Shown piece after piece: positions 11,856 through 46,013 of a DNA stretch of 64,000 nt; the stretch's first letter is position 1; each line of letters opens with the position of its first letter. Origin of the DNA: Escherichia phage vB_EcoM_G17. The notes under the pieces were generated by a model. That model ran no database searches. It had not been told where the DNA came from and saw nothing but the letters and a program-made list of their open reading frames with translations. The stretch is taken from sequence record MK327931.1. One strand, given 5' to 3'. Both the position numbers and the translations under genes were made by a program.

Positions 11856-11883
11856 TTCTTTACCCTCTTCAGTTGATGAAATG

Positions 11884-11920
11884 ATTATAGCAAAAAGGGC
11901 TGACCGAAGTCAACCCTTTT
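11884..11920 (-). promoter_or_regulatory. Stem-loop embedded in sigma70-like promoter (PeSL-like) / terminator
   Basis: Minus strand reads aaaagGGTTGACttcgGTCAGCCCtttttgcTATAAT: TTGACT, 18-nt spacer containing hairpin, TATAAT; copy 1 of 8. Confidence 0.6.
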
Positions 11921-11923
11921 GTT

Positions 11924-13042
11924 TTAGATAATTTGTACTTCACCATAGATCTGCACGATTTGCTTTCCTGGATTCTCTTCAATGAGTTTAAGGAAAGATT
12001 TCAATGCTCCAATATGGTCTTCATAATACGCAATACGAATGAAGTTATATCCATTTTTTATTGCGTATTCTGTTTTGATTTTATCGTGTTTTTTCCTCAT
12101 AAGTCCGTTTCCCCATCCTGATTCACGTTCTTCAAAGTGATTACTACCATCATATTCAAATAACGTATTAATATCACGAATATAAAAATCATATGGAAGT
12201 TTTGATTTATTTTTTAAATCAGGAAATGTTTTCTCTCTTTCAGTAACAAACATTCCTCTCAAAAACTCTTTACAATCATTATGACCAAATGAGTGTGTTT
12301 CTAATTGGGAACAACATCCACACTTTTGTGCTTGTTTACTAGTAAACGCATAATAGTCTTGATTACACTCGTGTCCTTTATCACATATATATTTTACATA
12401 ATAACGACCATTTGATTTCTTGTAAACTTCTTTTAATGTATATCCTAGTTCATTACAGCGTGTGTTAGCAATTGTTTCACGCATTTCAGGTGTTATAAAA
12501 TATCTAACGTTCATTGATGTTTTTGTAATTATATCATTTATTCTTCGTGGTTGTGTAAATCCATCGGAATATGTGAATTTAATATATGACATTATCCCAT
12601 TGTCTAAATGTTCATTTTCATATATATAGCATCCTCTTTCCTCAAGAGAACCCAATTTGGTTACATAGTAATAATAATTTTCATCTGTATAGGTAAATGA
12701 TGGCTTGAATTTATTGTTTGTTATTTTTTCAAGCTTTGTTTTTAAACCAGTTATTTTATAATTATCATACAATACCCCATTATACATAATCAGTAAATTG
12801 TTATTACTATTTCCGTTTTTACCAAACTCACGTGATGATTTAACTGATAATCCAATAATAGTAATATTGTCAATATCTTTGTTTTTTAATTTTGCTTCTA
12901 TGTCATCAACATGATCCTTAGCAGTGAGTCCTTTTGAAACCCTTTTTATATCTTCAGGCTTCATCCATTCAAAACGCATACCAAGTTCTTCATGAAAATA
13001 AACTTTTTCACCATCTTCATTTAAATAATACTGTTCAAACAT
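11924..13042 (-). CDS. Putative endonuclease with C-terminal Vsr/DUF559-like PD-(D/E)XK domain (possible homing endonuclease)
   Basis: 372 aa; C-terminus PYDFYIRDINTLFEYDGSNHFE...NGYNFIRI matches DUF559 pattern; Cys cluster CDKGHEC...CGCC. Confidence 0.55.
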   Translation of the reverse strand: MFEQYYLNEDGEKVYFHEELGMRFEWMKPEDIKRVSKGLTAKDHVDDIEAKLKNKDIDNITIIGLSVKSSREFGKNGNSNNNLLIMYNGVLYDNYKITGLKTKLEKITNNKFKPSFTYTDENYYYYVTKLGSLEERGCYIYENEHLDNGIMSYIKFTYSDGFTQPRRINDIITKTSMNVRYFITPEMRETIANTRCNELGYTLKEVYKKSNGRYYVKYICDKGHECNQDYYAFTSKQAQKCGCCSQLETHSFGHNDCKEFLRGMFVTEREKTFPDLKNKSKLPYDFYIRDINTLFEYDGSNHFEERESGWGNGLMRKKHDKIKTEYAIKNGYNFIRIAYYEDHIGALKSFLKLIEENPGKQIVQIYGEVQII

Positions 13043-13271
13043 TACTTAATACTCCTTTCCAGTACTGAACCCGTCCAGCACCATTAATCTTAGCTTTAAT
13101 CTTATCTTTTTCGACAAGACCTTCTTTGAAATCGATGGAAGTATTATCGCACTGAATTACATCTAAGTCAAGTACTTCTTGTGTACTTAATGAAGTATTA
13201 TCTGCAATTTGTTGTAAAGTAATTACATCAGTACCGAAGAATTCAGCTAATCGTATAAAAGATAGTTTCAT
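13035..13271 (-). CDS. hypothetical protein (78 aa)
   Basis: ORF in co-oriented array. Confidence 0.5.
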   Translation of the reverse strand: MKLSFIRLAEFFGTDVITLQQIADNTSLSTQEVLDLDVIQCDNTSIDFKEGLVEKDKIKAKINGAGRVQYWKGVLSNV

Positions 13272-13297
13272 TTGTTACCTCTTGTGTTGATGAAATA

Positions 13298-13334
13298 ATT
13301 ATAGCAAAAAGGGCTGACCGAAGTCAACCCTTTA
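13298..13334 (-). promoter_or_regulatory. PeSL-like stem-loop/promoter (copy 2)
   Basis: Same 45-bp element as at 11884: gggctgaccgaagtcaaccc + attata. Confidence 0.6.
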
Positions 13335-13336
13335 TG

Positions 13337-13696
13337 TTATTCTAATTCACTCATAGTACTAATAGTTAATCCCATTTCTTCTGCAATGTTGCATAACATA
13401 CCAACTGCATTACGAAGAATATCAGTGTTGTCCACCGATAATGATGAGTTTTCATTTACAGTTGAAGACTCAATGTAGTACTCAAAATAACGAGAAGTTG
13501 AACGCACAACTTTAACACCTTCATAGTTCTGTAGTTCAGAGTTGATACGCTCGATGAGCGAATCTTCCAGTACTCGATAGTCACCATTCATTCCACGTTT
13601 CCATCCATCAGCAGGACGGAAATAAAAAGTTTTTGTACGTTGAATTGTTGAGATTGTTAGTGGGTTGTATTCTGCGATTTCACTTAAAGATGCCAT
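13337..13696 (-). CDS. hypothetical protein (119 aa)
   Basis: ORF after PeSL promoter; no motif. Confidence 0.55.
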   Translation of the reverse strand: MASLSEIAEYNPLTISTIQRTKTFYFRPADGWKRGMNGDYRVLEDSLIERINSELQNYEGVKVVRSTSRYFEYYIESSTVNENSSLSVDNTDILRNAVGMLCNIAEEMGLTISTMSELE

Positions 13697-13802
13697 GTTG
13701 TATTCCTCATTTGGTGATGTACATAATACAGAAAGATAGAACAGGTGTCAATGTTTATATATCAAATATCCAAATACTTTGGTGTATCACATACTACATC
13801 AA

Positions 13803-13997
13803 CTAATCCTCGCTGAAGACAACAAGAAGGAATGACACGAACAATGCCGCATAACAAGGAGCTATCTTCATGTACCACGGGACTTCATAATACCATGTAC
13901 CTAATTCATCCCACGAAAAGAGTATACTCAAACCGAAGCCGATTAGCGATAGTACAATAAAAGAAATCCAGAAACGCGTTGAATATACTAATAACAT
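13803..13997 (-). CDS. small membrane protein (64 aa)
   Basis: Two hydrophobic segments. Confidence 0.45.
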   Translation of the reverse strand: MLLVYSTRFWISFIVLSLIGFGLSILFSWDELGTWYYEVPWYMKIAPCYAALFVSFLLVVFSED

Positions 13998-14035
13998 GTT
14001 ATGTTCCTTTGTGTAACCGAAGTCAACCCTTTCCT

Positions 14036-14551
14036 TTAATAATTATTCATTTCATCTTTGATTTGTTCTTCAATTTCGTCGAACATATCAGTACTAGATT
14101 CGTTCTTACTACTTACGTTCTGCATATCTTTAACGTACTGTGGACATTCAACATCAGTAAACTTATACCACGTAGGCTTCATCTGGAGCTTCTCAATCAA
14201 ACGATCACGAGACATTTTAATCTCTGACTCCGTTGGTACGTAGTCATTACAAAACTCAGTAGGGAAGCCGCTAATGTCGTTTACTTCAGTGTTTTGAATC
14301 TTCATACCACGACGCAGACATTCGTTGACAATATCAATATGACGCTTCTGTAAGTACAATAACTTGTCGTAAAAGAATGTCACATGACCTGAACCTAACA
14401 GATAAGTACTATTAATTTTGAAATCACGTACACGCTTACGTGCTTGAACGTGTTTTTGTACAGCACCAAATACACGTGGGAGTTCACGATATTCAGCCAT
14501 CAGATGTTGGTCAGCAAGTTCTTTAACGTGTACTAAGTTAATGCGTGTCAT
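14036..14551 (-). CDS. denV: Endonuclease V (pyrimidine-dimer DNA glycosylase), T4 DenV-like
   Basis: N-terminus [31 protein letters not shown]...VRDFKI...[10 protein letters not shown] closely matches T4 endo V from memory; 171 aa, so C-terminus longer than T4's. Confidence 0.9.
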
Positions 14552-14579
14552 GTATTCATCCTCTCGTCTTGATGAAATA

Positions 14580-14616
14580 ATTATAGCAAAAAGGGCTGAC
14601 CGAAGTCAACCCTTTT
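14580..14616 (-). promoter_or_regulatory. PeSL-like stem-loop/promoter (copy 3)
   Basis: gatgaaataattatagcaaaaagggctgaccgaagtcaaccc, upstream of denV. Confidence 0.6.
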
Positions 14617-14618
14617 CT

Positions 14619-14888
14619 TTATTCAATGATCCCCAACTTCACAATCTCATACCCGTCCAGATAGCCGTAGGAACACTCAGGTGTTTCATAAGATGAACCA
14701 TCATGGATGCCCTGGCATTGACTTTTGGAATTCTCAAGCAATCGTTGCAGTACTGATACGTCATCAAGAACGTAATACAAGTTAGCATATAGGTCAGTTA
14801 CAATACAGTACTCCAACATATCAAATGTATCAATCGAAATTTCAACCTTAGCAAATCGTTTCTTTTCTTTATTATACAGTGCGTACAT
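14619..14888 (-). CDS. hypothetical protein (89 aa)
   Basis: Start MYALYNK placed directly after upstream stop (TAATATG). Confidence 0.5.
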   Translation of the reverse strand: MYALYNKEKKRFAKVEISIDTFDMLEYCIVTDLYANLYYVLDDVSVLQRLLENSKSQCQGIHDGSSYETPECSYGYLDGYEIVKLGIIE

Positions 14889-14889
14889 A

Positions 14890-15306
14890 TTAATCTCCAT
14901 AATCAAGTTTAACTAACTTACCACCCAGATACCCAAAGTTTTCTGGCTTCGCATCTGAATAGAAGAAGTCAGTACTTAACTCTGAATTCAATGCTAAAGC
15001 ACACAACTCCACCCAAAATAAACCCCTATGTTGAACTGGCTTACAACGTTTCTGTACAGTTACTAGTCCAGTACATGATGACCACAACGTAGGACAGATA
15101 CTACTATCACTACGATTGGAGTACTGCATCCACGAACGTTCATTGAGGTTAGCTATCATCCCTGTTAAGAATAGCTTCCAACTTTTAAAGGTTGGAATCT
15201 TGATAGCATATTCCCCAATGAGGATAACAGTTCGTGTTGCACCTTTCAAATCTATATTCATATTTTTAATTAGAAGAACACAAACCAAGTCCAGAACAAA
15301 TTCCAC
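14890..15306 (-). CDS. Protein-kinase-like mini protein (N-lobe plus catalytic loop only)
   Basis: LIGEYAIKIP (VAIK-like) and FYSDAKPENFGYLGGKLVKLDYGD (D-x-KPEN ... DFG-like); ORF ends right after DYG; start may be internal MNIDLKG at 15261. Confidence 0.5.
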   Translation of the reverse strand: MEFVLDLVCVLLIKNMNIDLKGATRTVILIGEYAIKIPTFKSWKLFLTGMIANLNERSWMQYSNRSDSSICPTLWSSCTGLVTVQKRCKPVQHRGLFWVELCALALNSELSTDFFYSDAKPENFGYLGGKLVKLDYGD

Positions 15307-15521
15307 ATTACAAATAAAGACATAGTGGTTTTATGTACAATATCAGCAGTACTGGTCCATCCTCCACCGTGTCCTATTCCATTTATGAATAGAACTAAGA
15401 ACAAGATACCATTTACTACAATAGTACATACTAAGTACACAAATACATTCCATGCAAGTCCAGGGGATACTAAAGTAAATGGTAAAACTATTAGTAGTAT
15501 TAGAACTAATAATATTTTCAT
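15270..15521 (-). CDS. small membrane protein (83 aa)
   Basis: Hydrophobic; overlaps upstream ORF start, so boundaries uncertain. Confidence 0.45.
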   Translation of the reverse strand: MKILLVLILLIVLPFTLVSPGLAWNVFVYLVCTIVVNGILFLVLFINGIGHGGGWTSTADIVHKTTMSLFVMWNLFWTWFVFF

Positions 15522-15560
15522 TTATCGCCTCACTTAATTAACGTGACATATCACGTAATA

Positions 15561-15737
15561 TTAGTACGAATCAGATTCCCAGTACTCGATTGCTTCTTTC
15601 AGCAATTCTTTAGCACGTTGTTTTGCAATGCGAGCGGGGAACTGATATGTGTACATTAACTGACGCTTCACTTCATTCAGTGAAAGCTGTTCATGGTACA
15701 GTGCATCCATCAGTCGATTACGAGTACGTAGTTTCAT
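15561..15737 (-). CDS. hypothetical small protein (58 aa), not in ORF track
   Basis: MKLRTRNRLMDALYHEQLSLNEVKRQLM...; RBS aaggataa upstream. Confidence 0.4.
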   Translation of the reverse strand: MKLRTRNRLMDALYHEQLSLNEVKRQLMYTYQFPARIAKQRAKELLKEAIEYWESDSY

Positions 15738-15748
15738 ATAAGTTATCC

Positions 15749-16303
15749 TTATTTCAAAGAATCATAGTAAGCAGTGTCAAAGATTGGAGTCATAATAACA
15801 TAGTCAATACGGTCAATGTAAGTTGAACTCCACATTTCTGGTTTGTCATATAACTGACGCTCGCGTTCATTCATACGAGTCAGTACTTCTTCCAATTTAC
15901 TACGTGAATCCATCAATGTATTACTCGAACCATAAGTGAAGTACTCAGTCCAATGATATTCATATTCAGTACTGATAGATTGAATAGTACCATCTTTGAA
16001 ATGAGCTAAGGCATAACCTTTCTCTACAAAGTTATCAGGTGGAAGAACACCATCTGGATTAGTTTTCAATGCTTGTGCTAACTTTTCTTTAATTTCATTT
16101 AACGTGCATACTGAACGAATGTTCTTCAGGTTTGATACTTGAAAATCACTGTACTTTCCAAAGAAAAAGACACGCCAATCTTTAGGTTCATTATCAGATA
16201 CGGTAGCATCAGGGTGATGGGCGAGTAAACGAAGAAGGCCAGCTTTGTGACCGTTAATGTAGATTTCATGGATGTGGTTAGCAGTTTTCTTAAAAGTAAT
16301 CAT
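15749..16303 (-). CDS. hypothetical protein (184 aa)
   Basis: ORF downstream of consensus promoter at 16351. Confidence 0.6.
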   Translation of the reverse strand: MITFKKTANHIHEIYINGHKAGLLRLLAHHPDATVSDNEPKDWRVFFFGKYSDFQVSNLKNIRSVCTLNEIKEKLAQALKTNPDGVLPPDNFVEKGYALAHFKDGTIQSISTEYEYHWTEYFTYGSSNTLMDSRSKLEEVLTRMNERERQLYDKPEMWSSTYIDRIDYVIMTPIFDTAYYDSLK

Positions 16304-16350
16304 GGTAGTTCCTCGATTGTAGGGATGAGAAGTTCATCCCCTTGATAAGC

Positions 16351-16378
16351 ATTATACAGTACTGAATGTGTTTGTCAA
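16351..16378 (-). promoter_or_regulatory. sigma70-like promoter TTGACA-N16-TATAAT with CAGTACTG abutting -10
   Basis: Minus strand: TTGACAaacacattCAGTACTGTATAAT. Confidence 0.6.
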
Positions 16379-16379
16379 C

Positions 16380-16775
16380 TCAAAATAAATTCATTTCATG
16401 TGCGTATTGTGGTTCAAGATAAGATAAGTTTTTGAAACTGTCTTTCAATTCTGCATCATCTACGTACACAGTACCAGGTACATTCCCCATAGTGAAGCCA
16501 ACCCAAACAGTCATGTTTCCAGTTCCTAAGCGGGGCATTGATAGCGTCCCGTCAGGTGAAACATCAAACGCTACACTAAAGTCATCCGTTACAACTTCCG
16601 AACCATTTTCCAGAATAATACAACCACGTTCTTTAAGCTTCTGAATGTGGATAGAAGCCTCTACTGCACGTTTAAAGTTATAGTAAGACTCTTTATCCTC
16701 AAACATAGATTGTTTAACCAGACGCTTGTTTAGCTCGGTTACTTTGTACATTTGTCGCATTACTTCAACTCCCAC
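16380..16775 (-). CDS. hypothetical protein (131 aa)
   Basis: ORF in array. Confidence 0.55.
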   Translation of the reverse strand: MGVEVMRQMYKVTELNKRLVKQSMFEDKESYYNFKRAVEASIHIQKLKERGCIILENGSEVVTDDFSVAFDVSPDGTLSMPRLGTGNMTVWVGFTMGNVPGTVYVDDAELKDSFKNLSYLEPQYAHEMNLF

Positions 16776-17014
16776 AGTTGTAGAATTTCATAAGAGCCTG
16801 GTGGTGCTGGATTGATAATCTCAGGGTATTCAGTACTGTTAGGATTACCACCAGCATTGAACTCAGCAAGTAATAATTCGAGTTCATTCCTATCATGTAC
16901 AACAAACACGCAATATCCAGTTCCTTCTTCAAGAACTGTAGTTGACCCCGCACAATCCCATACGGTATCAATACATAATAATTCTTTAGTGTTTTTATTA
17001 CGCAACGCAAACAT
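16760..17014 (-). CDS. hypothetical protein (84 aa)
   Basis: Balanced composition; preferred over overlapping 16765..17178 frame. Confidence 0.5.
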   Translation of the reverse strand: MFALRNKNTKELLCIDTVWDCAGSTTVLEEGTGYCVFVVHDRNELELLLAEFNAGGNPNSTEYPEIINPAPPGSYEILQLWELK

Positions 17015-17023
17015 ATTTGTCTC

Positions 17024-17392
17024 CTATCGATTCGGCATATTCTTTCGTAGTCGCAAGAGAAATTCAACCACTGACCATGTTGTAATGAAGGCAATATAAG
17101 TTGCAAGGAATCCAGTAAGAATAAATGCAACCAGCGTACTACCATTTGGGGAATCAGTTTTAATGCCGATGACACCATCGGCTACAGTGAAACATGTAGC
17201 CATTAATGTGTAACCTACGTACAACACAAAGAAAAACTCATTCTCCATTGAAGGATAGAAACGGTTAAACACTTTATAAAATTTAAAGTACAGTAGGATT
17301 ATACCAACAAAGGCATAGAATGTAAACAGTGTTGTTATAATATATGAGATTAGGTTCAAATTATACATATCAACGCTCCGGTAGATTATCAC
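17024..17392 (-). CDS. small polytopic membrane protein (paralogue family, tail NMPNR)
   Basis: Hydrophobic; paralogue of next two ORFs; start may be MYNLNL at 17368. Confidence 0.6.
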   Translation of the reverse strand: MIIYRSVDMYNLNLISYIITTLFTFYAFVGIILLYFKFYKVFNRFYPSMENEFFFVLYVGYTLMATCFTVADGVIGIKTDSPNGSTLVAFILTGFLATYIAFITTWSVVEFLLRLRKNMPNR

Positions 17393-17717
17393 GTAATGTT
17401 TTAATTCGATGATACATTTTCATACCAATATTACCAAAGATACCATATCCAAGTACTAAAATGTATGCGATAAGCATAGTAATAATTACTATAGTACCAA
17501 AACTATAATGTACACTACTGATACCCATTGTAGTTTCAACGATTATTTGAGAAACTGAAAGAATCAAAAGTACAACTACAATTGGATGATTTGGGTACAT
17601 TCGGTTGAACAACGTTTTGTACTTAAAGAAGCACAGTACTCCACCAAATAAGAAGTAAACAATGTAAATGCAAGCAACAGCATAGGCAAACATGTTAGTG
17701 TAATAAATCATTACCAA
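17370..17717 (-). CDS. small polytopic membrane protein (paralogue family, tail NLPER)
   Basis: 115 aa; hydrophobic. Confidence 0.6.
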   Translation of the reverse strand: MVMIYYTNMFAYAVACIYIVYFLFGGVLCFFKYKTLFNRMYPNHPIVVVLLILSVSQIIVETTMGISSVHYSFGTIVIITMLIAYILVLGYGIFGNIGMKMYHRIKTLRDNLPER

Positions 17718-17720
17718 TCC

Positions 17721-18059
17721 TTACTTTTCAGGGATATTAGAACGCCATATATCAATGCGATGAACTAGTCCAAAGAACAACCATACTGGAACGGCAGCTA
17801 TCATAACAACAAATGAAAACCCAGTCAAGACCGATACCAGATTTAATTCATCAGTACTATACCCACATATCAGTACTTCTAATATTCCCCACGTACATGC
17901 ACAAAACATCAAGAATGAAATTGGGGCATCATAGTAGATACGTTCATATAAAGTAGTGTATCGGAAGAATGCAATAATGTAGCAAAACATATAATACACC
18001 CAAACCAAAGATACTACATAAAATGATACTTTGTTTATTAATTCAAAATATTGTTCCAT
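17721..18059 (-). CDS. small polytopic membrane protein (paralogue family, tail NIPEK)
   Basis: 112 aa; hydrophobic. Confidence 0.6.
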   Translation of the reverse strand: MEQYFELINKVSFYVVSLVWVYYMFCYIIAFFRYTTLYERIYYDAPISFLMFCACTWGILEVLICGYSTDELNLVSVLTGFSFVVMIAAVPVWLFFGLVHRIDIWRSNIPEK

Positions 18060-18061
18060 TT

Positions 18062-18343
18062 TTACCCCAATATATATTCAGAGAGTAATGTATTAGCTTC
18101 ATCTTTGTTCTTAAGGTAATACATGTAATATAGATTCGGTTCACCATCTTTAGCACTCAAATCGAAGTACTTTAAACTATGTACTTTCATAGTAAAAACA
18201 AATAATGACTTAAAACCAATCTCACCGTACTTAATAAACAGTTCATCCAAATGAATGTAACTTTTTGATTTGGATAATTCTTTAACGTCTGCATCAATTT
18301 CAGATAAAAGATGCTTACCTATTAAGTTTTCAAATGAACGCAT
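18062..18343 (-). CDS. hypothetical protein (93 aa)
   Basis: ORF in array. Confidence 0.5.
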   Translation of the reverse strand: MRSFENLIGKHLLSEIDADVKELSKSKSYIHLDELFIKYGEIGFKSLFVFTMKVHSLKYFDLSAKDGEPNLYYMYYLKNKDEANTLLSEYILG

Positions 18344-18404
18344 GATTTTATCCTTTACCGCAATTTTTATGGTTTATTAAGAATACATCAGAACATCAGT
18401 TCTG

Positions 18405-19079
18405 TCAATAAAAAACTGGATCTTCTTCAGTAATTGGTATTTCTCTACGCACATCACACGAAAGAGGATCAGTAATGAATACATTCCCATCTTTATCCAT
18501 CATCACATTACTTGAATGAATGTCTGGTACAAAACGCCCGTGAAACTCTTTCATGATGTTAGCAGCGACCGTTGCAATAGCAATCTCTTCAGAATTTCCA
18601 CGCATATCATTCACTGAAGTTGCGTACTGACCAGCATGTGCATACGAATACAAATCTCCAATTTTAGTACTAACAAAGTCATCATAATTATTTTTTTGTT
18701 TAATTATAGGATAGTACTTGTCCATCTCATACCATCCAAAGTTTCCTTGTTCGTTTGCACTGTAGATCACAGGAAGAAACTTGGTTCCTGCGTTTTCAAT
18801 GCAGTACTTTGCATAAGCACGAAAACCATCCCAGCGTGAAGTGGTTACTTTAAATGCACTTCCAGGATAGTTTTTATGTTCAACTACTACAGAGTACATC
18901 CCCATTCCAAGCAAAGTAAGTCCAGCAGCTTTAACTTGTGGAAAGATTACGCGTTCAGCATAAGGAATATCAAACTCCATCGCACAACGAGTTTTTGATG
19001 GACGCAAAATGTCAATTAAAGTTTTGAATATTTCTTGCTTAGTCATTACTTTATCCTCTGTAGTTAATACCAACATCAT
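18405..19079 (-). CDS. Putative atypical kinase-like protein
   Basis: LGMGMYSVVV (Gly-loop-like), AFKV, and DIHSSNVMMDKDGNVFITDP (catalytic-loop/DFG-like); weak, by eye. Confidence 0.35.
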   Translation of the reverse strand: MMLVLTTEDKVMTKQEIFKTLIDILRPSKTRCAMEFDIPYAERVIFPQVKAAGLTLLGMGMYSVVVEHKNYPGSAFKVTTSRWDGFRAYAKYCIENAGTKFLPVIYSANEQGNFGWYEMDKYYPIIKQKNNYDDFVSTKIGDLYSYAHAGQYATSVNDMRGNSEEIAIATVAANIMKEFHGRFVPDIHSSNVMMDKDGNVFITDPLSCDVRREIPITEEDPVFY

Positions 19080-19081
19080 AA

Positions 19082-19112
19082 CAAAAAAGGCTGACCGAAG
19101 TCAACCCTTTTA
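19082..19112 (-). promoter_or_regulatory. PeSL-like stem-loop / terminator (copy 4)
   Basis: aaaaaaggctgaccgaagtcaacccttttatta. Confidence 0.55.
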
Positions 19113-19115
19113 TTA

Positions 19116-19535
19116 TCATTTACAGTTTTCTATAACTATTGCACGTTTTAGTATTTTACTTTCATAAACATACTTAAGATGACCTTCTTCACGAATACGA
19201 TTGAACACATATCCTAGTTTATCTTTTAGTACTGAAGCGGTATCAATGTCAAGATTAACTTCAACCCCTCCTGTTAATTTAACTTTATATGTAAAGCTAA
19301 AAGCATCACCAGATTCAACCAATGGGACTACTTGTTCATACGTATTCAACATAACTCGTTCATCATTAACTAAATTATATATTACTATATCACAAGTTTT
19401 TACCCCAATTTCCTCTAAGGTAGGAGCATTGTCTACTATAACATCTTTTACTGTATTAGCAACCTGTTTAGCATCTGCTGCATATACATTAAAACTAAAA
19501 AGTACTAAAATAATACTTAAAAAAATCTTTTTCAT
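19116..19535 (-). CDS. secreted protein (signal peptide)
   Basis: MKKIFLSIILVLFSFNVYAADA... Confidence 0.6.
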   Translation of the reverse strand: MKKIFLSIILVLFSFNVYAADAKQVANTVKDVIVDNAPTLEEIGVKTCDIVIYNLVNDERVMLNTYEQVVPLVESGDAFSFTYKVKLTGGVEVNLDIDTASVLKDKLGYVFNRIREEGHLKYVYESKILKRAIVIENCK

Positions 19536-19544
19536 TATATATCC

Positions 19545-19874
19545 TTATTTTATTTTACACGTCATATCGGGTTGTGCTGGTTTATTATTTTTAAACGGAT
19601 TAGGTTTTTTATCTTTCTTTTTATCTTTTAAAGGTTTTTTGTCTTCTTTTTTATCTTTATCTTTGTCTTTTTTATTTTTATCAGGTTCAGAGGGAGTATT
19701 ACATTGTGCTGGGGGTTGATTAGTTGGAGTACAGCTATTGTCTGATGGGAGTATTACTTCTTTACAATTGTAAAATAGTAAACTTTTATTTGTGGTTAAA
19801 TTATGAAAACGATAGTTACGTTCATTATTATAATAAATTGTTTTAGTACTTTCAATGTCATTACACATTGCCAC
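19545..19874 (-). CDS. hypothetical Lys/Asp-rich protein (109 aa)
   Basis: KDKDKDKKEDKK low-complexity tail. Confidence 0.5.
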   Translation of the reverse strand: MAMCNDIESTKTIYYNNERNYRFHNLTTNKSLLFYNCKEVILPSDNSCTPTNQPPAQCNTPSEPDKNKKDKDKDKKEDKKPLKDKKKDKKPNPFKNNKPAQPDMTCKIK

Positions 19875-19878
19875 GGAA

Positions 19879-20130
19879 TCACCGAAACTCTTTTTCTATT
19901 CCCATTACATCAGTCTTACGCTCAGATAGTATACCTGAAGTATATGAATCTTTGTTGTCAAACGCATTAAATCCAATAGTTCTGTCGGTGTCGTGTATTA
20001 TTCCTTTTGTGTATGAGGTAGTATAGAACTCCCCATTTCTGAAATCCTGCCTTGCTACGGAGCAATGATAATCTGCACCATAAGCAGTACTGGAAAATAA
20101 TACAATTCCAAATATAATATATTTTTTCAT
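19879..20130 (-). CDS. secreted protein (signal peptide)
   Basis: Start at MKKYIIFGIVLFSSTAYGA (RBS agaggg); the longer track ORF would run through the PeSL element. Confidence 0.55.
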   Translation of the reverse strand: MKKYIIFGIVLFSSTAYGADYHCSVARQDFRNGEFYTTSYTKGIIHDTDRTIGFNAFDNKDSYTSGILSERKTDVMGIEKEFR

Positions 20131-20164
20131 TGTAATCCCTCTTCTTAATTCCTCTTTTGTATTT

Positions 20165-20200
20165 ACAAAAAAAGGCTGACCGAAGTCAACCTTTAGTTTT
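20165..20200 (-). promoter_or_regulatory. PeSL-like stem-loop (copy 5)
   Basis: acaaaaaaaggctgaccgaagtcaaccttt. Confidence 0.55.
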
Positions 20201-20201
20201 A

Positions 20202-21746
20202 TCATTTACCGTATTTGCTCATGATGTCCTTTTCCCAATGAGTTACGTTACCGTTATCGTAATCTTTAAAGGAATTATCAAGAGTAGTTAATGCATATTC
20301 GTATGCTTCAGGTGATTCAATGTCAACATCATCAGCACCATTTACTAAATCAGTCCATGCTTTTTGTAGTTTACGAGCATTTTTACCAACATTACTTTTA
20401 ATCCAACTAATGTTTTTGTTGATACTCTTATTATCAGCACCAGCTTTTTTACCAATATCGGATATCCACATCATTAGCTTTTGGAGTTCATGAATGGAGT
20501 TGTCGTTCATTTCACGATCTTTAGCCAATTCTGCTTCCATGCCATCAGTATCAGTACCATCTTTAGAACCTACATCAATTCCATGTTTAGCTAATAGTTT
20601 ACCAAGTTCAAAGAATGCTGCCTCAGCAGGGAAGTCATAACCTTTGTCTTTGTAGTTGTTCCATGCACTATCAAACTCATCTACAAATCGGTTGGCATAA
20701 TCTGGATTGTCCACGAGAGCTTTGTACACTGCCATTGCATGTTCAAATCCTTCTTTGTCAGAACCAAACTCTCCCATTTCTGGACGATGAATGTAACCAT
20801 CCATATCAACAGTATCAGGTAAATCATCATGAGATGTTTCAGCATCTTTCTGGTCAACTGCACCTTCTTCATCTGCACGAACTAAGTAACCATCTTTTGA
20901 TACTTTCTCACCATGTTCAGCTTCATACTTTTTCATAGTATTGAATGCAGAATTCATAACAGTGATGAATCGAGACTTCTCACCTGGTGAGTAAGAATCT
21001 AATGCTGCTTTAATAGCATCATGTACTAATTGAATCTTATCATCTTTGCCTTCAAGACGATTTTCTAACTTAGCAAGAACATTCTTAACTTGCTGGGCGT
21101 TAGCACGGTCTTCTTTACCTATACGGTTAACAGTATGGAGGATGCTTTCAAGACTTGCTTCTTCAGCAGTCGCTTCTTCTTGTCCTTCAAGTGCACGCAT
21201 GATAGTACTGAATACTTCAGTTGGTTCAGTACTGGTATTTCCACTCATTGCATCAAGTACAGCTTGTGCTTTGACTTTTAATTCTTCTTTAGGTACAGAT
21301 TGCAATTCTTTCACAATACCTTGGATAAGTTGTGGTTTATTAGCAAAAATCTTACCTAACTTATCAGACAATTCTTTGACAGGGTTAACCGCCTTTGGTG
21401 CTTCTTGTTTTGGTTCTTCTTTCGCAGGAGAAGACTTTTCTTTTTCTTCACGTTCCATATCAGCTAGGCGTTGTTTTTGTGTAGCATTAAGAAGTCCCAA
21501 TGAATTAACATAACGTAGCTTTTCTAGCTCAGTCATGTTCTCAGTACTCTTAACTTCACCTGCTTCTGCGTTTGCTTTACCAGCTAGACCAGTTCCTTGG
21601 TTACGTGATCCACGTGAACCTTGACCTGCTTGATAACTATTTGGTCGGCGGTTGCGTTCACTCCATTTATCCGAGTGACCAGCCATGTTACCACCATTTT
21701 TATCAGTAAAATTACTTGGCATTTGATTTCTCTCCATAGATTTCAT
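20202..21746 (-). CDS. hypothetical Lys/Glu-rich protein (514 aa)
   Basis: Basic low-complexity N-terminus, YVNSLGLL motif shared with 21992..22375, acidic C-terminal half. Confidence 0.7.
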   Translation of the reverse strand: MKSMERNQMPSNFTDKNGGNMAGHSDKWSERNRRPNSYQAGQGSRGSRNQGTGLAGKANAEAGEVKSTENMTELEKLRYVNSLGLLNATQKQRLADMEREEKEKSSPAKEEPKQEAPKAVNPVKELSDKLGKIFANKPQLIQGIVKELQSVPKEELKVKAQAVLDAMSGNTSTEPTEVFSTIMRALEGQEEATAEEASLESILHTVNRIGKEDRANAQQVKNVLAKLENRLEGKDDKIQLVHDAIKAALDSYSPGEKSRFITVMNSAFNTMKKYEAEHGEKVSKDGYLVRADEEGAVDQKDAETSHDDLPDTVDMDGYIHRPEMGEFGSDKEGFEHAMAVYKALVDNPDYANRFVDEFDSAWNNYKDKGYDFPAEAAFFELGKLLAKHGIDVGSKDGTDTDGMEAELAKDREMNDNSIHELQKLMMWISDIGKKAGADNKSINKNISWIKSNVGKNARKLQKAWTDLVNGADDVDIESPEAYEYALTTLDNSFKDYDNGNVTHWEKDIMSKYGK

Positions 21747-21774
21747 TTTTTCTCTATGTCTATATTTATAGTAT

Positions 21775-21805
21775 AAAGAAAAGGCTGACCGAAGTCAACC
21801 TTATT
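21775..21805 (-). promoter_or_regulatory. PeSL-like stem-loop (copy 6)
   Basis: aaaaggctgaccgaagtcaacctta. Confidence 0.55.
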
Positions 21806-21808
21806 TTG

Positions 21809-21922
21809 TTACTTAGATTGTTCTTGTGCAGGTGGATTTACTTTTTGATCCACTACATAGAATACACCACCAACCAGTACTGCGGCGATGAGTGCAGCAA
21901 CTACAAATTTCAAACCTTGCAT
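21809..21922 (-). CDS. small membrane protein (37 aa), not in ORF track
   Basis: MQGLKFVVAALIAAVLVGGVFYVVDQK...; RBS gaggta. Confidence 0.35.
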   Translation of the reverse strand: MQGLKFVVAALIAAVLVGGVFYVVDQKVNPPAQEQSK

Positions 21923-21949
21923 ATATGATACCTCAGTTATATTGAGAAG

Positions 21950-21990
21950 TTATGATACAACAAAGGGCTGACCTTAGTCAACCCCTTTTT
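21950..21990 (-). promoter_or_regulatory. PeSL-like stem-loop (copy 7, loop variant)
   Basis: gggctgaccTTAGtcaacccc; minus strand TTGACT-N18-TATCAT. Confidence 0.5.
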
Positions 21991-21991
21991 A

Positions 21992-22375
21992 TTACTTCTT
22001 GAACTTATGTTTTTCACTTTCGATTGCATTCACGATTTCATCATGAATTTTACGAAGATTGTGAGTTTTCTTGAGAGAATCATGCAATGCACGGAATGCA
22101 GAGTGTACAGTTGCTTTAAAGTGCTCTTTAGGAGTTACTTTAAGTTTCTCGATAATATCACGTACATAGATTGGGTGATCTTCAAACACACGGTTTAGCT
22201 CGTGGCCTAGAGACTCTAGACTAAACGCTTTTTCACGTGAAGGACGATCATGTGCAAGACTTTGGTCAGGTTTTAGAAGACCTAGTGAATCTAGATATTT
22301 GTGCTTATGTGCATTGTCTAGACCAGAAATATCAACATCATGGGATGGATCTTTCTTATTCCATTTATCAACCAT
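21992..22375 (-). CDS. hypothetical protein (127 aa), N-terminal paralogue of 20202..21746
   Basis: Shares DKW...KYLDSLGLL motif. Confidence 0.6.
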   Translation of the reverse strand: MVDKWNKKDPSHDVDISGLDNAHKHKYLDSLGLLKPDQSLAHDRPSREKAFSLESLGHELNRVFEDHPIYVRDIIEKLKVTPKEHFKATVHSAFRALHDSLKKTHNLRKIHDEIVNAIESEKHKFKK

Positions 22376-22490
22376 TTTTATAACTCCTATAAGAGATAAA
22401 TTTTACTATAATATTTATAGTTCCTGTGTCATTTATATGAACTGACATAGAAAATTATATCATATTAAAAATGGTTGTCCCAAAGTTAAA

Positions 22491-22964
22491 TCAGTACTGA
22501 TCAAGTTCAGATGTAAAAATGAATGCATCCATGTCTTCCAACGTAAGTTTTAAGTCTGGTACGTACTTAAGAATAACGCACTCTGGCTTCTTAATAGCAG
22601 CTTGATAAGCAGCAATGGCAAGGGATTCCAACTGCTGTGCTGTATAATTTTTACGTTCTGCATTAAAAACTTTGTTTTTGATATCACCACCTGGGAGTTT
22701 TTCAAACTCACGCATAACTGCGGTAAGAACATCGTCAGCAGTGTTACTATATACCCATTGGGGTAATTGCATTACATTATAAATCACACCACTATCATCC
22801 ATCAAAGAGATCCATTTATATCCATCACTCGCACTAAACAAACGCCCTTTTAGTACTGTGTTATTAGTTAAATTTACAAATGCAAAAATATCTTGTTCGT
22901 TAAGTTCAATACTATTAACATTTACCCAACTCATTACGATTCCCCATTCATAAATCACGAACAA
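22491..22964 (-). CDS. hypothetical protein (157 aa)
   Basis: ORF in array. Confidence 0.55.
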   Translation of the reverse strand: MFVIYEWGIVMSWVNVNSIELNEQDIFAFVNLTNNTVLKGRLFSASDGYKWISLMDDSGVIYNVMQLPQWVYSNTADDVLTAVMREFEKLPGGDIKNKVFNAERKNYTAQQLESLAIAAYQAAIKKPECVILKYVPDLKLTLEDMDAFIFTSELDQY

Positions 22965-23544
22965 TATTCATTAAACACAATTTAGGTTTTATAGCATTCA
23001 ACACCCATATGCATTCTTTGTAAGTAGCTATTATATCATCTAAATGCTCAGTTACAATGCTTTCTTGAAAATATTCTTCATCATTGAGCTTTGCTAATTT
23101 AGTAACATCACACGTAGGCACTATAGGTCTGGATTGTACACCCATTCCATTATTGATATTAGTGAAATGTACAAAATGGTACTTCACAACACCTTTATCT
23201 AGATTTACTATACATGACAAGTTTTCCAACTCAGTTAGTTCTTTACTACAAGTAACATTAATGAAACCAGTATTATAGGCTCTATAATCATCTACTGATA
23301 TCTCAAAATCATTACGCTGAAATATAAGTGAAATGAGTTTGTCCAGTGGTTTTACATTCATATATTTTAATGAATTTACGTATGATACTTCAATCTTAGA
23401 TGAAATTATTTTTTTACTAAGTGCAGTCAATTCTTTATTAGATTTACCTGTTAATACTATAGGTTTAAACCTAGAACTCTTATTTTTCTTTGATACTTTA
23501 AAACGACCTTTACGATTCATATTTTCCTCAATTAATAATTTCAC
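22948..23544 (-). CDS. hypothetical protein (198 aa)
   Basis: ORF in array. Confidence 0.55.
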   Translation of the reverse strand: MKLLIEENMNRKGRFKVSKKNKSSRFKPIVLTGKSNKELTALSKKIISSKIEVSYVNSLKYMNVKPLDKLISLIFQRNDFEISVDDYRAYNTGFINVTCSKELTELENLSCIVNLDKGVVKYHFVHFTNINNGMGVQSRPIVPTCDVTKLAKLNDEEYFQESIVTEHLDDIIATYKECIWVLNAIKPKLCLMNIVRDL

Positions 23545-23749
23545 ATTTAACGTGTGGTTTATATAACATAATTAACCCATTTTTAAGTACAATGATTGTT
23601 CCTCGGTCAGTAATAGAAACGTTTTTAATTATACTTTTTTTATATGTTTCAACATATTTCTCTTCGTAATTTATACATTTAACATATTCTTTTTGTTTAG
23701 CACTTACAACAGTACTGAATAATATCAGTACAAGTACTATATATTTCAT
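23528..23749 (-). CDS. small secreted protein (73 aa)
   Basis: MKYIVLVLILFSTVVSA signal peptide. Confidence 0.55.
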   Translation of the reverse strand: MKYIVLVLILFSTVVSAKQKEYVKCINYEEKYVETYKKSIIKNVSITDRGTIIVLKNGLIMLYKPHVKCEIIN

Positions 23750-23801
23750 TACTATACCTTATAAACAAAAAGGAATTCATTTAAGAATTCCTATTTTACA
23801 A

Positions 23802-24095
23802 TCATTTATCTAACATACCATTGTGTAAACGTTCATATACTTCAGTTCGACGCAAATTCACAATATCTTCTGCGTATTTTAATGTAAATGCCCATGCTTT
23901 TGGATGTACGTTAAGCTTCATACGAATTCGATTTTTCATCAACTCTCCACTTAAACGAATAAATTCGTGTACACCACGACTACCGTATTCAGTAATTAAA
24001 TCATTAATGTACATATCACGAAGAGTTTCATCTGCACATTCTTTAACCATTTCTACGTCAGCGACGATGCTTTCATTAACTGAAGTACTGATCAT
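23802..24095 (-). CDS. hypothetical protein (97 aa)
   Basis: ORF in array. Confidence 0.5.
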   Translation of the reverse strand: MISTSVNESIVADVEMVKECADETLRDMYINDLITEYGSRGVHEFIRLSGELMKNRIRMKLNVHPKAWAFTLKYAEDIVNLRRTEVYERLHNGMLDK

Positions 24096-24106
24096 TTTAA
24101 TTTACC

Positions 24107-24373
24107 TTATTTAAATTCGACTGTAATTTTATCACCTTCAACTACGAACTTACAGTTGTAGCGACGTGCCATATCCATGTACATATGCTCAGAGTACCAG
24201 GGAACATCAATAATCGGATGCTCTGCGTATTGTAGAACTTCACGGTCGCCAACTGTAGTGATGACGAAAGAAATGTTCATCTCTCGTAAAAACAGTTCAG
24301 CACCAGGAGAACGATTAATAAATTCAGTATCATTACGTAAAGTAAATCCATTATATTGTAATTTAAGCTTCAT
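24107..24373 (-). CDS. hypothetical protein (88 aa)
   Basis: ORF in array. Confidence 0.5.
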   Translation of the reverse strand: MKLKLQYNGFTLRNDTEFINRSPGAELFLREMNISFVITTVGDREVLQYAEHPIIDVPWYSEHMYMDMARRYNCKFVVEGDKITVEFK

Positions 24374-24387
24374 ATGTTATCCTCTAT

Positions 24388-24732
24388 TCAATACCATTCT
24401 TTAAAACCATTAAGTTCGGCTATGTGAGTAATTATAACACATATAACATTCAGGTCAAGTATAATTTGATCATAATTTAATTTTATACGATCATCATTAT
24501 ATGCCCTAAAGACTACATCGTAATCAAAGAAATTTGCGTTTTCATCATTCATTGAAACGATTCGGTATCTACGTCTTCCATCTGTATTGAATATTGTTAA
24601 ACACTGTTGAAACTTTCTCATTAACTGTTTAGATAGGATATTATAATATTCAATATCTTTTTGTGAATTACGTGGGTCATCAGGAAGATAGAATGAAACA
24701 AATTTCTTTAATTCTATTTGAGTTTTATCCAT
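24388..24732 (-). CDS. hypothetical protein (114 aa)
   Basis: ORF in array. Confidence 0.5.
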   Translation of the reverse strand: MDKTQIELKKFVSFYLPDDPRNSQKDIEYYNILSKQLMRKFQQCLTIFNTDGRRRYRIVSMNDENANFFDYDVVFRAYNDDRIKLNYDQIILDLNVICVIITHIAELNGFKEWY

Positions 24733-25165
24733 ATATTACCTCATGTGTTTCTCTTTTACTTTGTCGGAACTCATCCTTTGCTTCCTTAACTGACATGATA
24801 CGAACTAATTTAGCACTACCGCAATAGTACTGAACCTGATTACGACCAATGTCTACATGGTGGTCTGGAACTTCATATACAGATATAGCAAACCCAGCAC
24901 GATGCAATTTACCTAAGTCCATAGTGAAGAATCTGAACAAATCTTTCAAACTTTGACAGCCAAATACCCATCCACTTTTGATTGAATAGATCCCATCCTC
25001 AGTTGGTTCAGGTTGGAATTGAGAAGGTGTAGTCATGAGCATACGGTCAAATCCATTTTTAGTACTGTATCTGGTTGAATACCGTGCAAACGGACCTACA
25101 GTTCGTGCAGGATCTAAGTTAGGTTCAATGTAACTAAATTTAAGTTCAAAACGATATACATACAT
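24725..25165 (-). CDS. hypothetical protein (146 aa)
   Basis: ORF in array. Confidence 0.55.
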   Translation of the reverse strand: MYVYRFELKFSYIEPNLDPARTVGPFARYSTRYSTKNGFDRMLMTTPSQFQPEPTEDGIYSIKSGWVFGCQSLKDLFRFFTMDLGKLHRAGFAISVYEVPDHHVDIGRNQVQYYCGSAKLVRIMSVKEAKDEFRQSKRETHEVIYG

Positions 25166-25193
25166 AATTAAAATCCTCTAATTTATTAAGAGA

Positions 25194-25230
25194 ATTATAA
25201 CAAAAAAGGCTGACCGAAGTCAACCTTTGT
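25194..25230 (-). promoter_or_regulatory. PeSL-like stem-loop/promoter (copy 8)
   Basis: attataacaaaaaaggctgaccgaagtcaaccttt; overlaps stop of 25220..25411. Confidence 0.55.
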
Positions 25231-25411
25231 TTTGAAGTTCTTGAACTAATTGTCGTACTTCGTTAATATTTTTACACTGCTTTACAGTGAAGTAATCATA
25301 CTTACGACCATAGGTTCTTGGGTCATCACCTTCCATATACTGCTGCACATCAAAGATTTGTAAGTAGGGATGCTGCATAACACGAATATTATCACTTTGA
25401 TAAATCAACAT
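25220..25411 (-). CDS. hypothetical protein (about 63 aa)
   Basis: Start chosen at MLIYQSD to avoid overlap with upstream gene; track gives 25220..25465. Confidence 0.45.
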   Translation of the reverse strand: MLIYQSDNIRVMQHPYLQIFDVQQYMEGDDPRTYGRKYDYFTVKQCKNINEVRQLVQELQNKG

Positions 25412-25415
25412 AATA

Positions 25416-25766
25416 TCAATCCTTATATTTACACAAGCCACCAAAACTAGTTTCTTTAGCACCACGACGCATCATAACTAATTTAGCATATTGTGTGCCA
25501 TTACTATCTTCATATACATCTACTTCAATAAACGCTAAGAAGTTAGGGTCTGTGTCGTTAGAAAACTCAGTGAAGCTAATGTCGCCTACTGTATGCTCTT
25601 TAACAAACGTATATGATTGTCCATCAATATATACAATATCTCGATCGTCACTATCACCTTGATAGATATGTTTAATATTACCATCGGTACAAACTAAACC
25701 TTCCAATGGTTCAGCATATGACAATCCACACATTAACATACATACAAAAAATAAAATAATTTTCAT
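25416..25766 (-). CDS. secreted protein (signal peptide)
   Basis: MKIILFFVCMLMCGLSYAEP. Confidence 0.6.
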   Translation of the reverse strand: MKIILFFVCMLMCGLSYAEPLEGLVCTDGNIKHIYQGDSDDRDIVYIDGQSYTFVKEHTVGDISFTEFSNDTDPNFLAFIEVDVYEDSNGTQYAKLVMMRRGAKETSFGGLCKYKD

Positions 25767-25768
25767 GA

Positions 25769-26146: not shown

Positions 26147-26157
26147 TTTTTTAAGTC

Positions 26158-45923: not shown

Positions 45924-46013
<90 letters not shown>

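Follow-up and report, generated by a model that had tools for sequence, protein, structure and literature searches.

The window analysed here is a 64,000-nt stretch of Escherichia phage vB_EcoM_G17 (MK327931.1) in which an intergenic element of ~37 nt recurs in eight full copies, all on the minus strand, and we consider it likely that each copy is a bifunctional signal of the PeSL type, with an intrinsic terminator and a sigma70 early promoter laid over the same ~37 bp. The 15-kb stretch around the elements is 100% identical to Escherichia phage Sharanji (OR545507.1; Asteriusvirus; 350,079 bp), whose genome paper is silent on promoters, terminators and these repeats. We use the gene (gp) numbers of the Sharanji record throughout, and a window coordinate equals the Sharanji genome coordinate minus 47,777. 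Relatives at 85–98% nucleotide identity include JP4, 121Q, PBECO4, phAPEC6, UE-S1, CMSTMSU and vB_Ec-M-J. Beyond ~8 kb, all the way to the window's end, genes lie on the minus strand and are nearly all annotated as hypothetical, and those that flank the elements are all co-oriented and closely packed.

Read along the minus strand, the element has the layout AAAA-GGGTTGAC-TTCG-GTCAGCCC-TTTTTG(n)-TATAAT, that is, an A-rich tract, an 8-nt arm, a 4-nt loop, a second 8-nt arm, a T-run and a −10-like hexamer in that order. A census with the query GGGTTGACTTCGGTCAGCCC, allowing up to three mismatches, gave eight matches in the window, all minus-strand, and none in 100 dinucleotide-preserving shuffles. 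This agrees with the eight minus-strand sites named in an earlier, sequence-only reading of this DNA, which gave each site by the low end of its −10 hexamer or a position nearby; that count had missed a ninth, truncated copy at 14010–14029. The stems of copies 1 to 8 occupy 11897–11916, 13311–13330, 14593–14612, 19088–19107, 20173–20192, 21782–21801, 21965–21984 and 25207–25226. The same reading had set the stem-loop between −35 and −10 with TTGACT inside the 5′ arm, and the first of these has to be redrawn, as the stem-loop lies over the −35 and runs on across the spacer's first 14 nt; as to the second, five bases of the hexamer do lie in the arm and the sixth is the first loop base, in 8/8 copies. 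Its TTCG loop is found in seven of the eight copies, with TAAG in the copy at 21965 (copy 7), and its TATAAT is correct for copies 1, 2, 3 and 8, the remainder having TATGAT (copy 4), TATCAT (copy 7), TATACT (copy 6) or no credible −10 at all (copy 5). The further 25 bp that it attributed to three copies is a genuine shared string of 22 nt, exact at 13289–13310 and 14571–14592 and with one mismatch at 11875–11896; copies 2 and 3 share an exact run of 47 nt.

The spacing of these parts is tightly held. The −35 and −10 are separated by 18 bp in six copies and by 17 bp in copy 6, the −10 scores 5–6 out of 6 at 17–18 bp in 7/8 copies (copy 5 fails), and in five of the eight (copies 1, 2, 3, 4 and 8) it is preceded by TGn, the mark of an extended −10. 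An A-rich run (aaaacaaaa, aacataaa, aaagaaaa and the like) stands directly 5′ of the stem in all copies, and a U-run (T4–7) follows directly after it. Four copies have G-C as the outermost stem pair, three have A-U and one has G·U. The stop codon of the upstream gene lies 6–9 nt from the stem, or within the stem in copy 8, and the predicted +1, usually the A of a CAT about 7 nt past the −10, falls 17–25 nt before an ATG with a GAGG-type Shine-Dalgarno sequence; for most instances of the element, a constant 27–35 nt precedes the start codon.

Across the whole Sharanji genome we found 12 full copies and one half copy, all on the minus strand and all between 17 and 73 kb, a region of small hypothetical genes; the remaining 277 kb, with the replication and virion genes, has none. 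The four full copies outside the window (genome 17,239, 19,991, 23,260 and 26,548) read GGATTGACTCCGGTCAGTCC in three cases and TGGTTGACTTCGGTCAGCCA in one, have a TATTAT −10 and a longer common leader (attgagagata... / gcatagaaac...), and sit within genome 17239–26567 among small genes ~3 kb apart, in a manner resembling a repeated larger unit. No exact copy is present in the host E. coli genome, where the closest sequence is the yciU/oppF terminator, with CTGAC.

Taken individually, the copies differ mainly in the quality of the −10 and in the genes that they separate. Copy 1 (11884–11920, minus strand as are all others) has its A-tract at 11920–11917, stem-loop at 11916–11897, −35 at 11913–11908 and, after the T-run and TGc, a TATAAT −10 at 11889–11884, with a predicted +1 at ~11877; it separates the homing-endonuclease-like gp129 (stop 11924) from the AAA-ATPase-like gp128 (ATG 11855), and its upstream edge is a breakpoint in 121Q, PBECO4, phAPEC6 and UE-S1. 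Copy 2 (13298–13334; stem-loop 13330–13311, −35 13327–13322, −10 TATAAT 13303–13298, predicted +1 ~13291) separates gp131 (stop 13337) from gp130 (ATG 13271), and an additional gene abuts its upstream edge in JP4 and vB_Ec-M-J; a possible degraded half element, cAAGGaTTcACTTCc, at the JP4 insertion is too weak to call. Copy 3 (14580–14616; stem-loop 14612–14593, −10 TATAAT 14585–14580, predicted +1 ~14573) lies between gp133 (stop 14619) and denV, a pyrimidine-dimer glycosylase gene (ATG 14551). The truncated copy (14010–14029, minus strand), GGGTTGACTTCGGTtacaca, follows directly after the denV stop codon and precedes an unannotated 64-aa open reading frame (ORF; 13803–13997); the 5′ arm and loop are kept, along with 2 nt of the 3′ arm, and T-run and −10 are both missing. 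This half copy is kept in 121Q, JP4 and vB_Ec-M-J and falls within a 391-bp segment missing from phAPEC6 and PBECO4, and it resembles the degraded ‘half PeSLs’ described for phages nt-1 and PST.

Copies 4 and 5 bear on the annotation of the genes that follow them. Copy 4 (19075–19111) has a GGG...CCT stem with G·U as the outermost pair and a TATGAT −10 at 19080–19075 after TGt (predicted +1 ~19068), and lies between gp145 (stop 19116) and the protein kinase gene gp144, whose annotated ATG at 19079 is inside the −10; the true gp144 start is likely the ATG at ~19046, which has a Shine-Dalgarno sequence. Copy 5 (20162–20196), between the structural protein gene gp148 (stop 20202) and gp147, has an AGG...CCT stem with a compensatory A-U outer pair and a T7 run followed only by TAAATA/TGTAAA; given the lack of a credible −10, this copy probably works solely as a terminator. 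From its annotated start at 20205 the gp147 ORF runs through the copy 5 hairpin, and the ATG at 20130, with a Shine-Dalgarno sequence, is the more plausible start. 121Q annotates the shorter gp147 gene, and shorter gp144/gp147 genes are annotated in relatives.

Copies 6 and 7, only 183 bp apart, flank a one-ORF cassette. Copy 7 (21952–21988; loop TAAG, −10 TATCAT 21957–21952) stands between gp150 (stop 21992) and the 37-aa gp149 (ATG 21922), and copy 6 (21763–21805; stem AGG...CCT, −10 TATACT 21775–21770 at 17 nt) between gp149 and gp148 (ATG 21746), which relatives annotate as a virion structural protein; in CMSTMSU and vB_Ec-M-J, copy 6 also delimits one side of a variable slot. The sequence TATAAATA at 21770–21763 (minus strand) matches the T4-type late-promoter consensus and overlaps the last base of the copy 6 −10, and since this copy precedes a virion structural gene, it may serve two transcription phases. 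At the other end of the same gene, copy 5 lies 3′ of gp148 and has TAAATA where the −10 would be expected. Copy 8 (25194–25230; stem AGG...CCT, −10 TATAAT 25199–25194 after TGt, predicted +1 ~25187) is followed by gp157 (ATG 25165), and the TGA stop of the upstream gene gp158 (window 25220) is the TGA inside its −35 TTGACT. This copy is kept in all seven relatives examined, with no breakpoint on it.

On the sense strand the hairpin is stable, with a core folding energy of −11 to −12.8 kcal/mol and of −12.4 to −18.8 kcal/mol with flanks (z of about −5 to −5.8). In antisense the core attains no more than −5.2 to −7.5 kcal/mol, since T4·G17, which pairs as a G·U wobble in sense RNA, is there a C·A mismatch. 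The outer three pairs take several forms (GGG/CCC, AGG/CCT, GGA/TCC, TGG/CCA, GCC/GGC, AGC/GCT and GAG/CTC were all seen), and the copies outside the window, with GGA...TCC or TGG...CCA, represent double compensatory changes. In an alignment of 42 distinct versions from Sharanji, nt-1 and viral contigs, 98.2% of cells were paired, with 23 double-change cells compared to 4.7 in column shuffles (0/500 shuffles reached the observed value), evidence that comes from the outer three pairs only, as the inner five were fixed by the search pattern. Sliding the partner by one column lowered pairing to 46–58%. Among relatives the 3′ arm changes only by pair-preserving transitions (G17 to A, A16 to G and C20 to T), and the TTGAC of the 5′ arm is unchanged. 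A simple terminator scanner reported only 3/8 copies, probably because flanking A-T pairs extend the stem into the T-run, and its output was not used as a census.

The relation between hairpin and promoter was examined in IMG/VR with the pattern TTGACTNCGGTCARNNNTTT, in which the inner stem is set and the outer stem and all downstream sequence may vary. Among 102 unique matches, 63 had a −10-like hexamer at 16–18 nt and 39 did not, and all three outer pairs were formed in 59/63 matches with a −10 compared to 8/39 without (Fisher p = 1.5e-14); the matches that lack a −10 mostly look like chance hits inside coding sequence. This coupling is our main reason to reject the reading that the elements are plain intrinsic terminators, whose likeness to −35 and −10 boxes would be incidental in AT-rich DNA, the downstream genes being expressed by read-through or from other promoters. 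That reading has points in its favour: the supplement of the phage CBB paper lists these hairpins as terminators only, the UE-S1 and Muenster matches fall under terminator annotations, copy 5 lacks a −10, and an ordinary E. coli terminator, yciU/oppF, has almost the same stem. Promoter-like hexamer pairs are also no commoner than in shuffled sequence. It would leave unexplained why the weaker T·G wobble is kept exactly where a C, as in the host terminator, would destroy TTGAC, why the TTGAC arm is invariant and the 3′ arm variable, why TGn precedes the −10 in 5/8 copies and why a start codon follows at 27–35 nt, and we regard it as improbable. Together, the covariation, the wobble that pairs only in the sense strand and the linkage of hairpin to −10 show that the two functions are coupled.

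Two further explanations of the hairpin can be weighed against the same data. One is that the TTGAC-N4-GTCA(G/A) repeat is an operator for a dimeric regulator, either a host protein of the FNR/CRP family or a phage repressor, that shuts early promoters off, with the hairpin being secondary. The repeat does overlap the −35, a typical repressing position, the element is confined to one gene-expression region, and TTGACttcgGTCAA is listed as an FnrL site in Rhodobacter (PMC2908626). The first half-site, TTGAC, fits a box of the TTGAT-N4-ATCAA type. The second half-site, however, is GTCAG and not GTCAA in 7/8 copies here and in 53/63 elsewhere, which leaves the DNA palindrome imperfect while RNA pairing is kept, and complementarity continues for 3 bp past the half-sites, through compensatory changes and G·U intermediates, into a T-run, none of which a protein site needs. 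The centre of the palindrome is reckoned to lie near −29.5, which is not an activating FNR position, and phages of Vibrio, Aeromonas and Klebsiella, as well as of the Gram-positive Brochothrix, carry this same element. Owing to the asymmetric second half-site and the extended covarying stem, we judge an FNR box, and an operator of this kind in general, to be most unlikely. The other explanation holds that the hairpin acts mainly as a stabiliser or processing signal at the RNA 3′ end, protecting the upstream mRNA from 3′ exonucleases, which would suit a very stable cUUCGg tetraloop hairpin placed 6–9 nt past stop codons with a short U-tract after it. A run of U4–5 is nonetheless kept directly after the stem in nearly all of the instances that combine hairpin and −10 (hereafter composites), and the symmetry of A-tract and U-tract is typical of terminators. 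Stabilisation is compatible with termination and does not replace it, and as the main role we consider it very unlikely.

We return to the PeSL-type reading, from which a mechanism can be proposed; termination, initiation by the sigma70 holoenzyme and early timing are what we infer from the features above. The upstream transcript would fold into the 8-bp hairpin GGGUUGAC-UUCG-GUCAGCCC, which A-U pairs from the flanking tracts could extend to ~12 bp, and with U4–5 following it the transcript would end a few bases past the stem. As double-stranded DNA, the 5′ arm and first loop base would serve as the −35 TTGACT, and the 3′ arm and T-run as the 17–18-bp spacer; the end of the T-run would supply the TG of an extended −10, followed by TATAAT, and the upstream A-tract could act as an AT-rich, UP-like sequence. 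Host RNA polymerase would thus be expected to restart ~15–19 nt past the termination point, near CA(+1)T, giving the next gene a 17–25-nt leader that carries a GAGG Shine-Dalgarno sequence. The predicted effect is that each early gene, or small group of genes, is insulated as its own transcription unit. Because they share 37–50 nt at near identity, the copies additionally act as substrates for homologous recombination, by which genes between two copies are deleted, inserted or swapped.

Several observations weigh against this proposal. The U-tract is short (4–5 U, then a G), an 18-bp spacer exceeds the optimum by one, no usable −10 is present in copy 5, and copies 6 and 7 lack the TG and have −10 boxes that match at 4–5 of 6 positions. 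A consensus scan finds 81 promoter-like sites in the region compared to 86.7 in shuffles, so the hexamers by themselves are no evidence and the argument is their fixed register with the hairpin. The genes are co-oriented and packed, such that operon expression by read-through would work without these promoters, and no Asteriusvirus transcript 5′ or 3′ end data turned up in a literature search that was only loosely directed at them. As for recombination, any repeat of 40–50 nt supports homologous exchange, and such a role therefore needs no special property of the element; moreover, several of the indels adjacent to elements are homing-endonuclease genes, which could move unaided.

The idea that these elements mediate gene shuffling, also put forward in the sequence-only reading, is supported by a comparison of window positions 9,000–28,000 with the seven relatives. 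In UE-S1, a single element replaces each of three pairs of copies together with the genes between them. Where Sharanji has copy 2, gp130, gp129 and copy 1, the UE-S1 element has an upstream flank like that of copy 2 and a leader like that of copy 1; the element in place of copy 5, gp147–gp145 and copy 4 combines the flank and AGG arm of copy 5 with the leader of copy 4; and the one in place of copy 7, gp149 and copy 6 joins the copy 7 flank and GGG arm to the TTCG loop, CCT arm and leader of copy 6. UE-S1 has thus lost, or the others have gained, 1,414, 1,085 and 183 bp between the paired copies, the direction being a matter for an outgroup. These 2/1, 5/4 and 7/6 chimeras read as three independent exchanges inside elements, which is the signature of PeSL recombination. 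Between copies 7 and 6, UE-S1 has no gene, Sharanji has one, and vB_Ec-M-J and CMSTMSU have three, with one of those three genes annotated as superinfection immunity. Overall, 7 of the 22 distinct breakpoint clusters lie within 30 nt of an element compared to 4.3% expected by length (binomial p = 2.5e-5), a generous baseline because whole-gene indels must end between genes, so that enrichment relative to gene junctions would be weaker. Breakpoints hit 7/8 elements. In phAPEC6 we also noted, without statistics, that the copy 2 and copy 3 leaders, which have atcgaaacgagagg in common, appear to have undergone gene conversion.

Part of this variation has the character of homing. The gene 5′ of copy 1 (in Sharanji, window 11924–13042, minus strand) is a differing endonuclease-like gene in Sharanji/JP4, 121Q, phAPEC6 and PBECO4, and all of these variable genes match HNH/homing-endonuclease PHROGs (phrog_559, phrog_681, phrog_9084); Pfam had no match for most variable genes, and the endonuclease likeness was seen via PHROGs. 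At copy 3, JP4 and vB_Ec-M-J carry an HNH endonuclease gene (phrog_2255 in JP4) between the stop codon and the A-tract, of which phAPEC6 retains an 87-bp internally deleted remnant. Since these inserts have only one boundary at an element, they are explicable by homing, and it might be supposed that all gene-content differences arose from free-standing homing endonuclease genes inserting 5′ of terminators, with no role for the elements in plasticity. We think this unlikely as a general account, given that the three UE-S1 events have both boundaries in elements and left one chimeric copy each with flanks from different parents, that the gp147–gp145 event removed no endonuclease gene, and that the slot between copies 7 and 6 holds 0, 1 or 3 non-endonuclease genes depending on the phage. 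The elements mark preferred insertion points, and not every event is an exchange from element to element.

A second kind of repeat also recombines in this region. The tandem paralogous small genes gp125–gp127 (window 10340–11019, minus strand; ~340 nt each, with mutual identity of 77–79%) vary in copy number among relatives via recombination between the paralogs, with breakpoints at 10678/10891.

Outside the Sharanji group, a 37-nt query located the element in 310 phage records. Among the matches listed, Asteriusvirus genomes have 6–10 copies each, and other Rak2-like jumbo phages include RaK2 (13 places), Muenster (9) and Salmonella phage 7t3 (11), with GAP32, CBB, Serratia phage BF, Yersinia phage fHe-Yen9-04 and Erwinia phages as further carriers. 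Beyond the Rak2-like group it occurs in KVP40-like Vibrio phages, Aeromonas phages and the Gram-positive Brochothrix phage A9, and near-matches, in sequence only and with the −10 not part of the comparison, occur in ~145-kb Pectobacterium and Enterobacter phages. Composites in particular were seen in Asteriusvirus, RaK2, GAP32, CBB, BF and fHe-Yen9-04, in Vibrio and Aeromonas Straboviridae, and in A9. The sequence-only reading had proposed a search of relatives for the element beside different genes, and most genes downstream of copies outside Sharanji have no Sharanji homolog. Where orthologs do exist, the element is kept 5′ of them, as for denV (67% amino-acid identity, CBB), the kinase (63%, a metagenomic jumbo phage) and gp128 (59%). 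Retention at 59–67% protein identity, a distance at which neutral intergenic DNA is unrecognisable, indicates purifying selection.

This distribution is suggestive in other ways. RaK2 and Brochothrix phage A9 share an identical 32-mer. An initial transcribed sequence, CATCGAAAC(A/G)A, lies 5–6 nt past the −10 in 9/63 composites across lineages, with KVP40, metagenomic jumbo phages and Asteriusvirus copy 3 as carriers, and is not explained by promoter or terminator constraints. The 32-nt identity and this leader point, suggestively, to a pan-phage cassette that is either mobile or repeatedly evolved, the pattern being attributable either to horizontal transfer between unrelated phage families or to repeated evolution of the same overlap; since functional constraint acts on almost all positions of the 37-mer, convergence could suffice. 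We tentatively raise the possibility, without holding it to be the probable case, that TTGAC-(4-nt loop)-GTCAG, rather than being peculiar to the T4 family, is a minimal design shared across phages, where a generic terminator hairpin becomes a −35 box by one C-to-T change. If the pan-phage view is true, cassette shuffling through such elements would be a general mechanism behind the plasticity of early regions in large lytic phages.

The minus strand of the window also carries a second recurrent promoter family, which has no hairpin and consists of TTGACA/TTGACT, ~10 nt, CAGTACTG and TATAAT, with the palindrome AGTACT abutting the −10. Its sites lie in the gaps at ~11019–11084, 16303–16379, 26922–26996, 30836–30954, 31248–31403, 47498–47819, 48203–48279 and 48633–48703, several copies match the consensus at 11–12 of 12 positions, and inverted repeats containing AGTACT are additionally found at 8197–8238, 44414–44648 and 46301–46602. 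This family could be a second class of early promoter or an operator. Six tRNA genes (Rfam RF00005; window 45935–49384, minus strand) lie in gaps between small ORFs, some of them directly 3′ of CAGTACTG-type promoters; at gathering thresholds these six were the only Rfam matches in the window, with none at the elements. Two long non-coding gaps, 33237–33688 and 46301–46602 (minus strand), gave raw folding energies, with no shuffle baseline, of about −122 kcal/mol over 451 nt and −75 kcal/mol over 301 nt; neither had an Rfam match at the gathering threshold, and the first opens with a terminator-like hairpin, aaaaaaggttggcttatgccaaccttttttt.

Several consequences follow for these phages. PeSL-type cassettes and the shuffling associated with them are extended beyond T4-like phages to jumbo phages, the 350-kb Asteriusvirus and the Rak2-like group, in which such hairpins were previously listed as terminators only. 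The copies offer testable transcription-unit boundaries for an early region made up almost entirely of genes of unknown function, correct three likely start or stop mis-annotations (gp144, gp147 and gp158), and identify slots of gene gain and loss in phages that are therapeutic candidates, including those with superinfection-immunity-like genes and homing endonucleases. The 37-bp unit may also represent a natural compact insulator, a terminator joined to a strong promoter, of possible use in synthetic biology.

Comparison with systems already described begins with the terminators that the element most resembles. The supplement of the CBB (vB_PcaM_CBB) paper lists an identical hairpin, GGGTTGACTTCGGTCAGCCC, with T-runs, as the independently predicted rho-independent terminators Torf515, 518 and 520 (−16.8 kcal/mol), of which Torf518 and Torf520 continue from the T-run into the start of a −10-like TATA; the paper treats these as terminators only, its list of RpoD-like promoters comprises other sequences, and a composite nature or recombination role is unmentioned (PMC5259590). 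The matches in UE-S1 and Muenster likewise lie under features annotated as terminators. The promoters treated in a paper on the jumbo phage N1M2 are phiKZ-like and have no bearing on the element. The E. coli yciU/oppF bidirectional terminator, AAAAAGGGCTGAC-agct-GTCAGCCCTTTTT, agrees with the element in A-tract, clamp, 3′ arm and T-run, but differs in having CTGAC, which forms a perfect C-G pair, and no −10 after it, whereas the phage element keeps TTGAC. A single C-to-T change, retaining a G·U pair, would be a possible evolutionary route from terminator hairpin to −35 box.

PeSLs, with which the sequence-only reading had associated the copies, are intergenic cassettes comprising a sigma70-like promoter, an AT-rich upstream tract and a stem-loop between or overlapping the promoter boxes (PMC2839356), and they are concentrated in hyperplastic regions and linked to indels (PMC2839356; PMC4122927). 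In the coliphages RB49 and phi1, whose cassettes have a strong promoter of this type, reporter assays showed both promoter and terminator activity, and recombination between copies gave mini-circles (PMC2839356). The elements described here share with them the sigma70-like promoter and stem-loop terminator, the AT-rich tract and the span from stop codon to Shine-Dalgarno sequence and ATG; a subclass in RB49/phi1 also has the stem-loop overlapping the −35, and recombination of neighbouring copies there excises the intervening ORFs (PMC2839356). The RB49 stem-loops differ in being polyG/polyC and variable in position, and their activity and mini-circles are experimental, whereas the Sharanji element is known from its sequence.

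Direct comparison with the nt-1/KVP40 PeSLs, whose consensus is A3-4 G3-loop-C3 T3-4 with TTGYVH-N17-TAWWAT (PMC4122927), reveals a closer match. The same parts occur in both, namely A3–4, GGG, TTGAC, a 4-nt loop, GTCAG, CCC, a T-run and a −10 of the TAWWAT form (PMC4122927), and both are intergenic, lie among small ORFs and show an association with indels that distinguish close relatives. KVP40 carries GGGTTGAC-tacg-GTCAGCCC...TATTAT, Vibrio phage 6E35.1a has the same stem as an identical 20-mer, and the nt-1 gap between ORF109 and ORF110, aaaaaGGGTTGACagatGTCAGCCCttttttgTATCAT, contains aaaaaGGGTTGAC-agat-GTCAGCCCttttttgTATCAT with the same T·G wobble; this gap is the site of a PeSL-mediated ORF deletion in the legend of Fig. 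6B of the nt-1 study (PMC4122927). The systems differ in that Sharanji is a jumbo Asteriusvirus (350 kb, no family assigned) and nt-1/KVP40 are Straboviridae, in the loop (mostly UUCG in Sharanji compared to AGAT, ATAT, UACG and UGCG), and in the −10, which in Sharanji is nearer to consensus and has TGn; middle-promoter (PmSL) variants were not seen in Sharanji. In literature that uses the term PeSL, most of it seen through matches to the term, we did not find it applied to Rak2-like or Asteriusvirus phages. As the architecture is the same down to the wobble pair, the Sharanji element is of the same kind as the published PeSL, and what we describe is a known kind of element recognised in a lineage where it had not been so described before.

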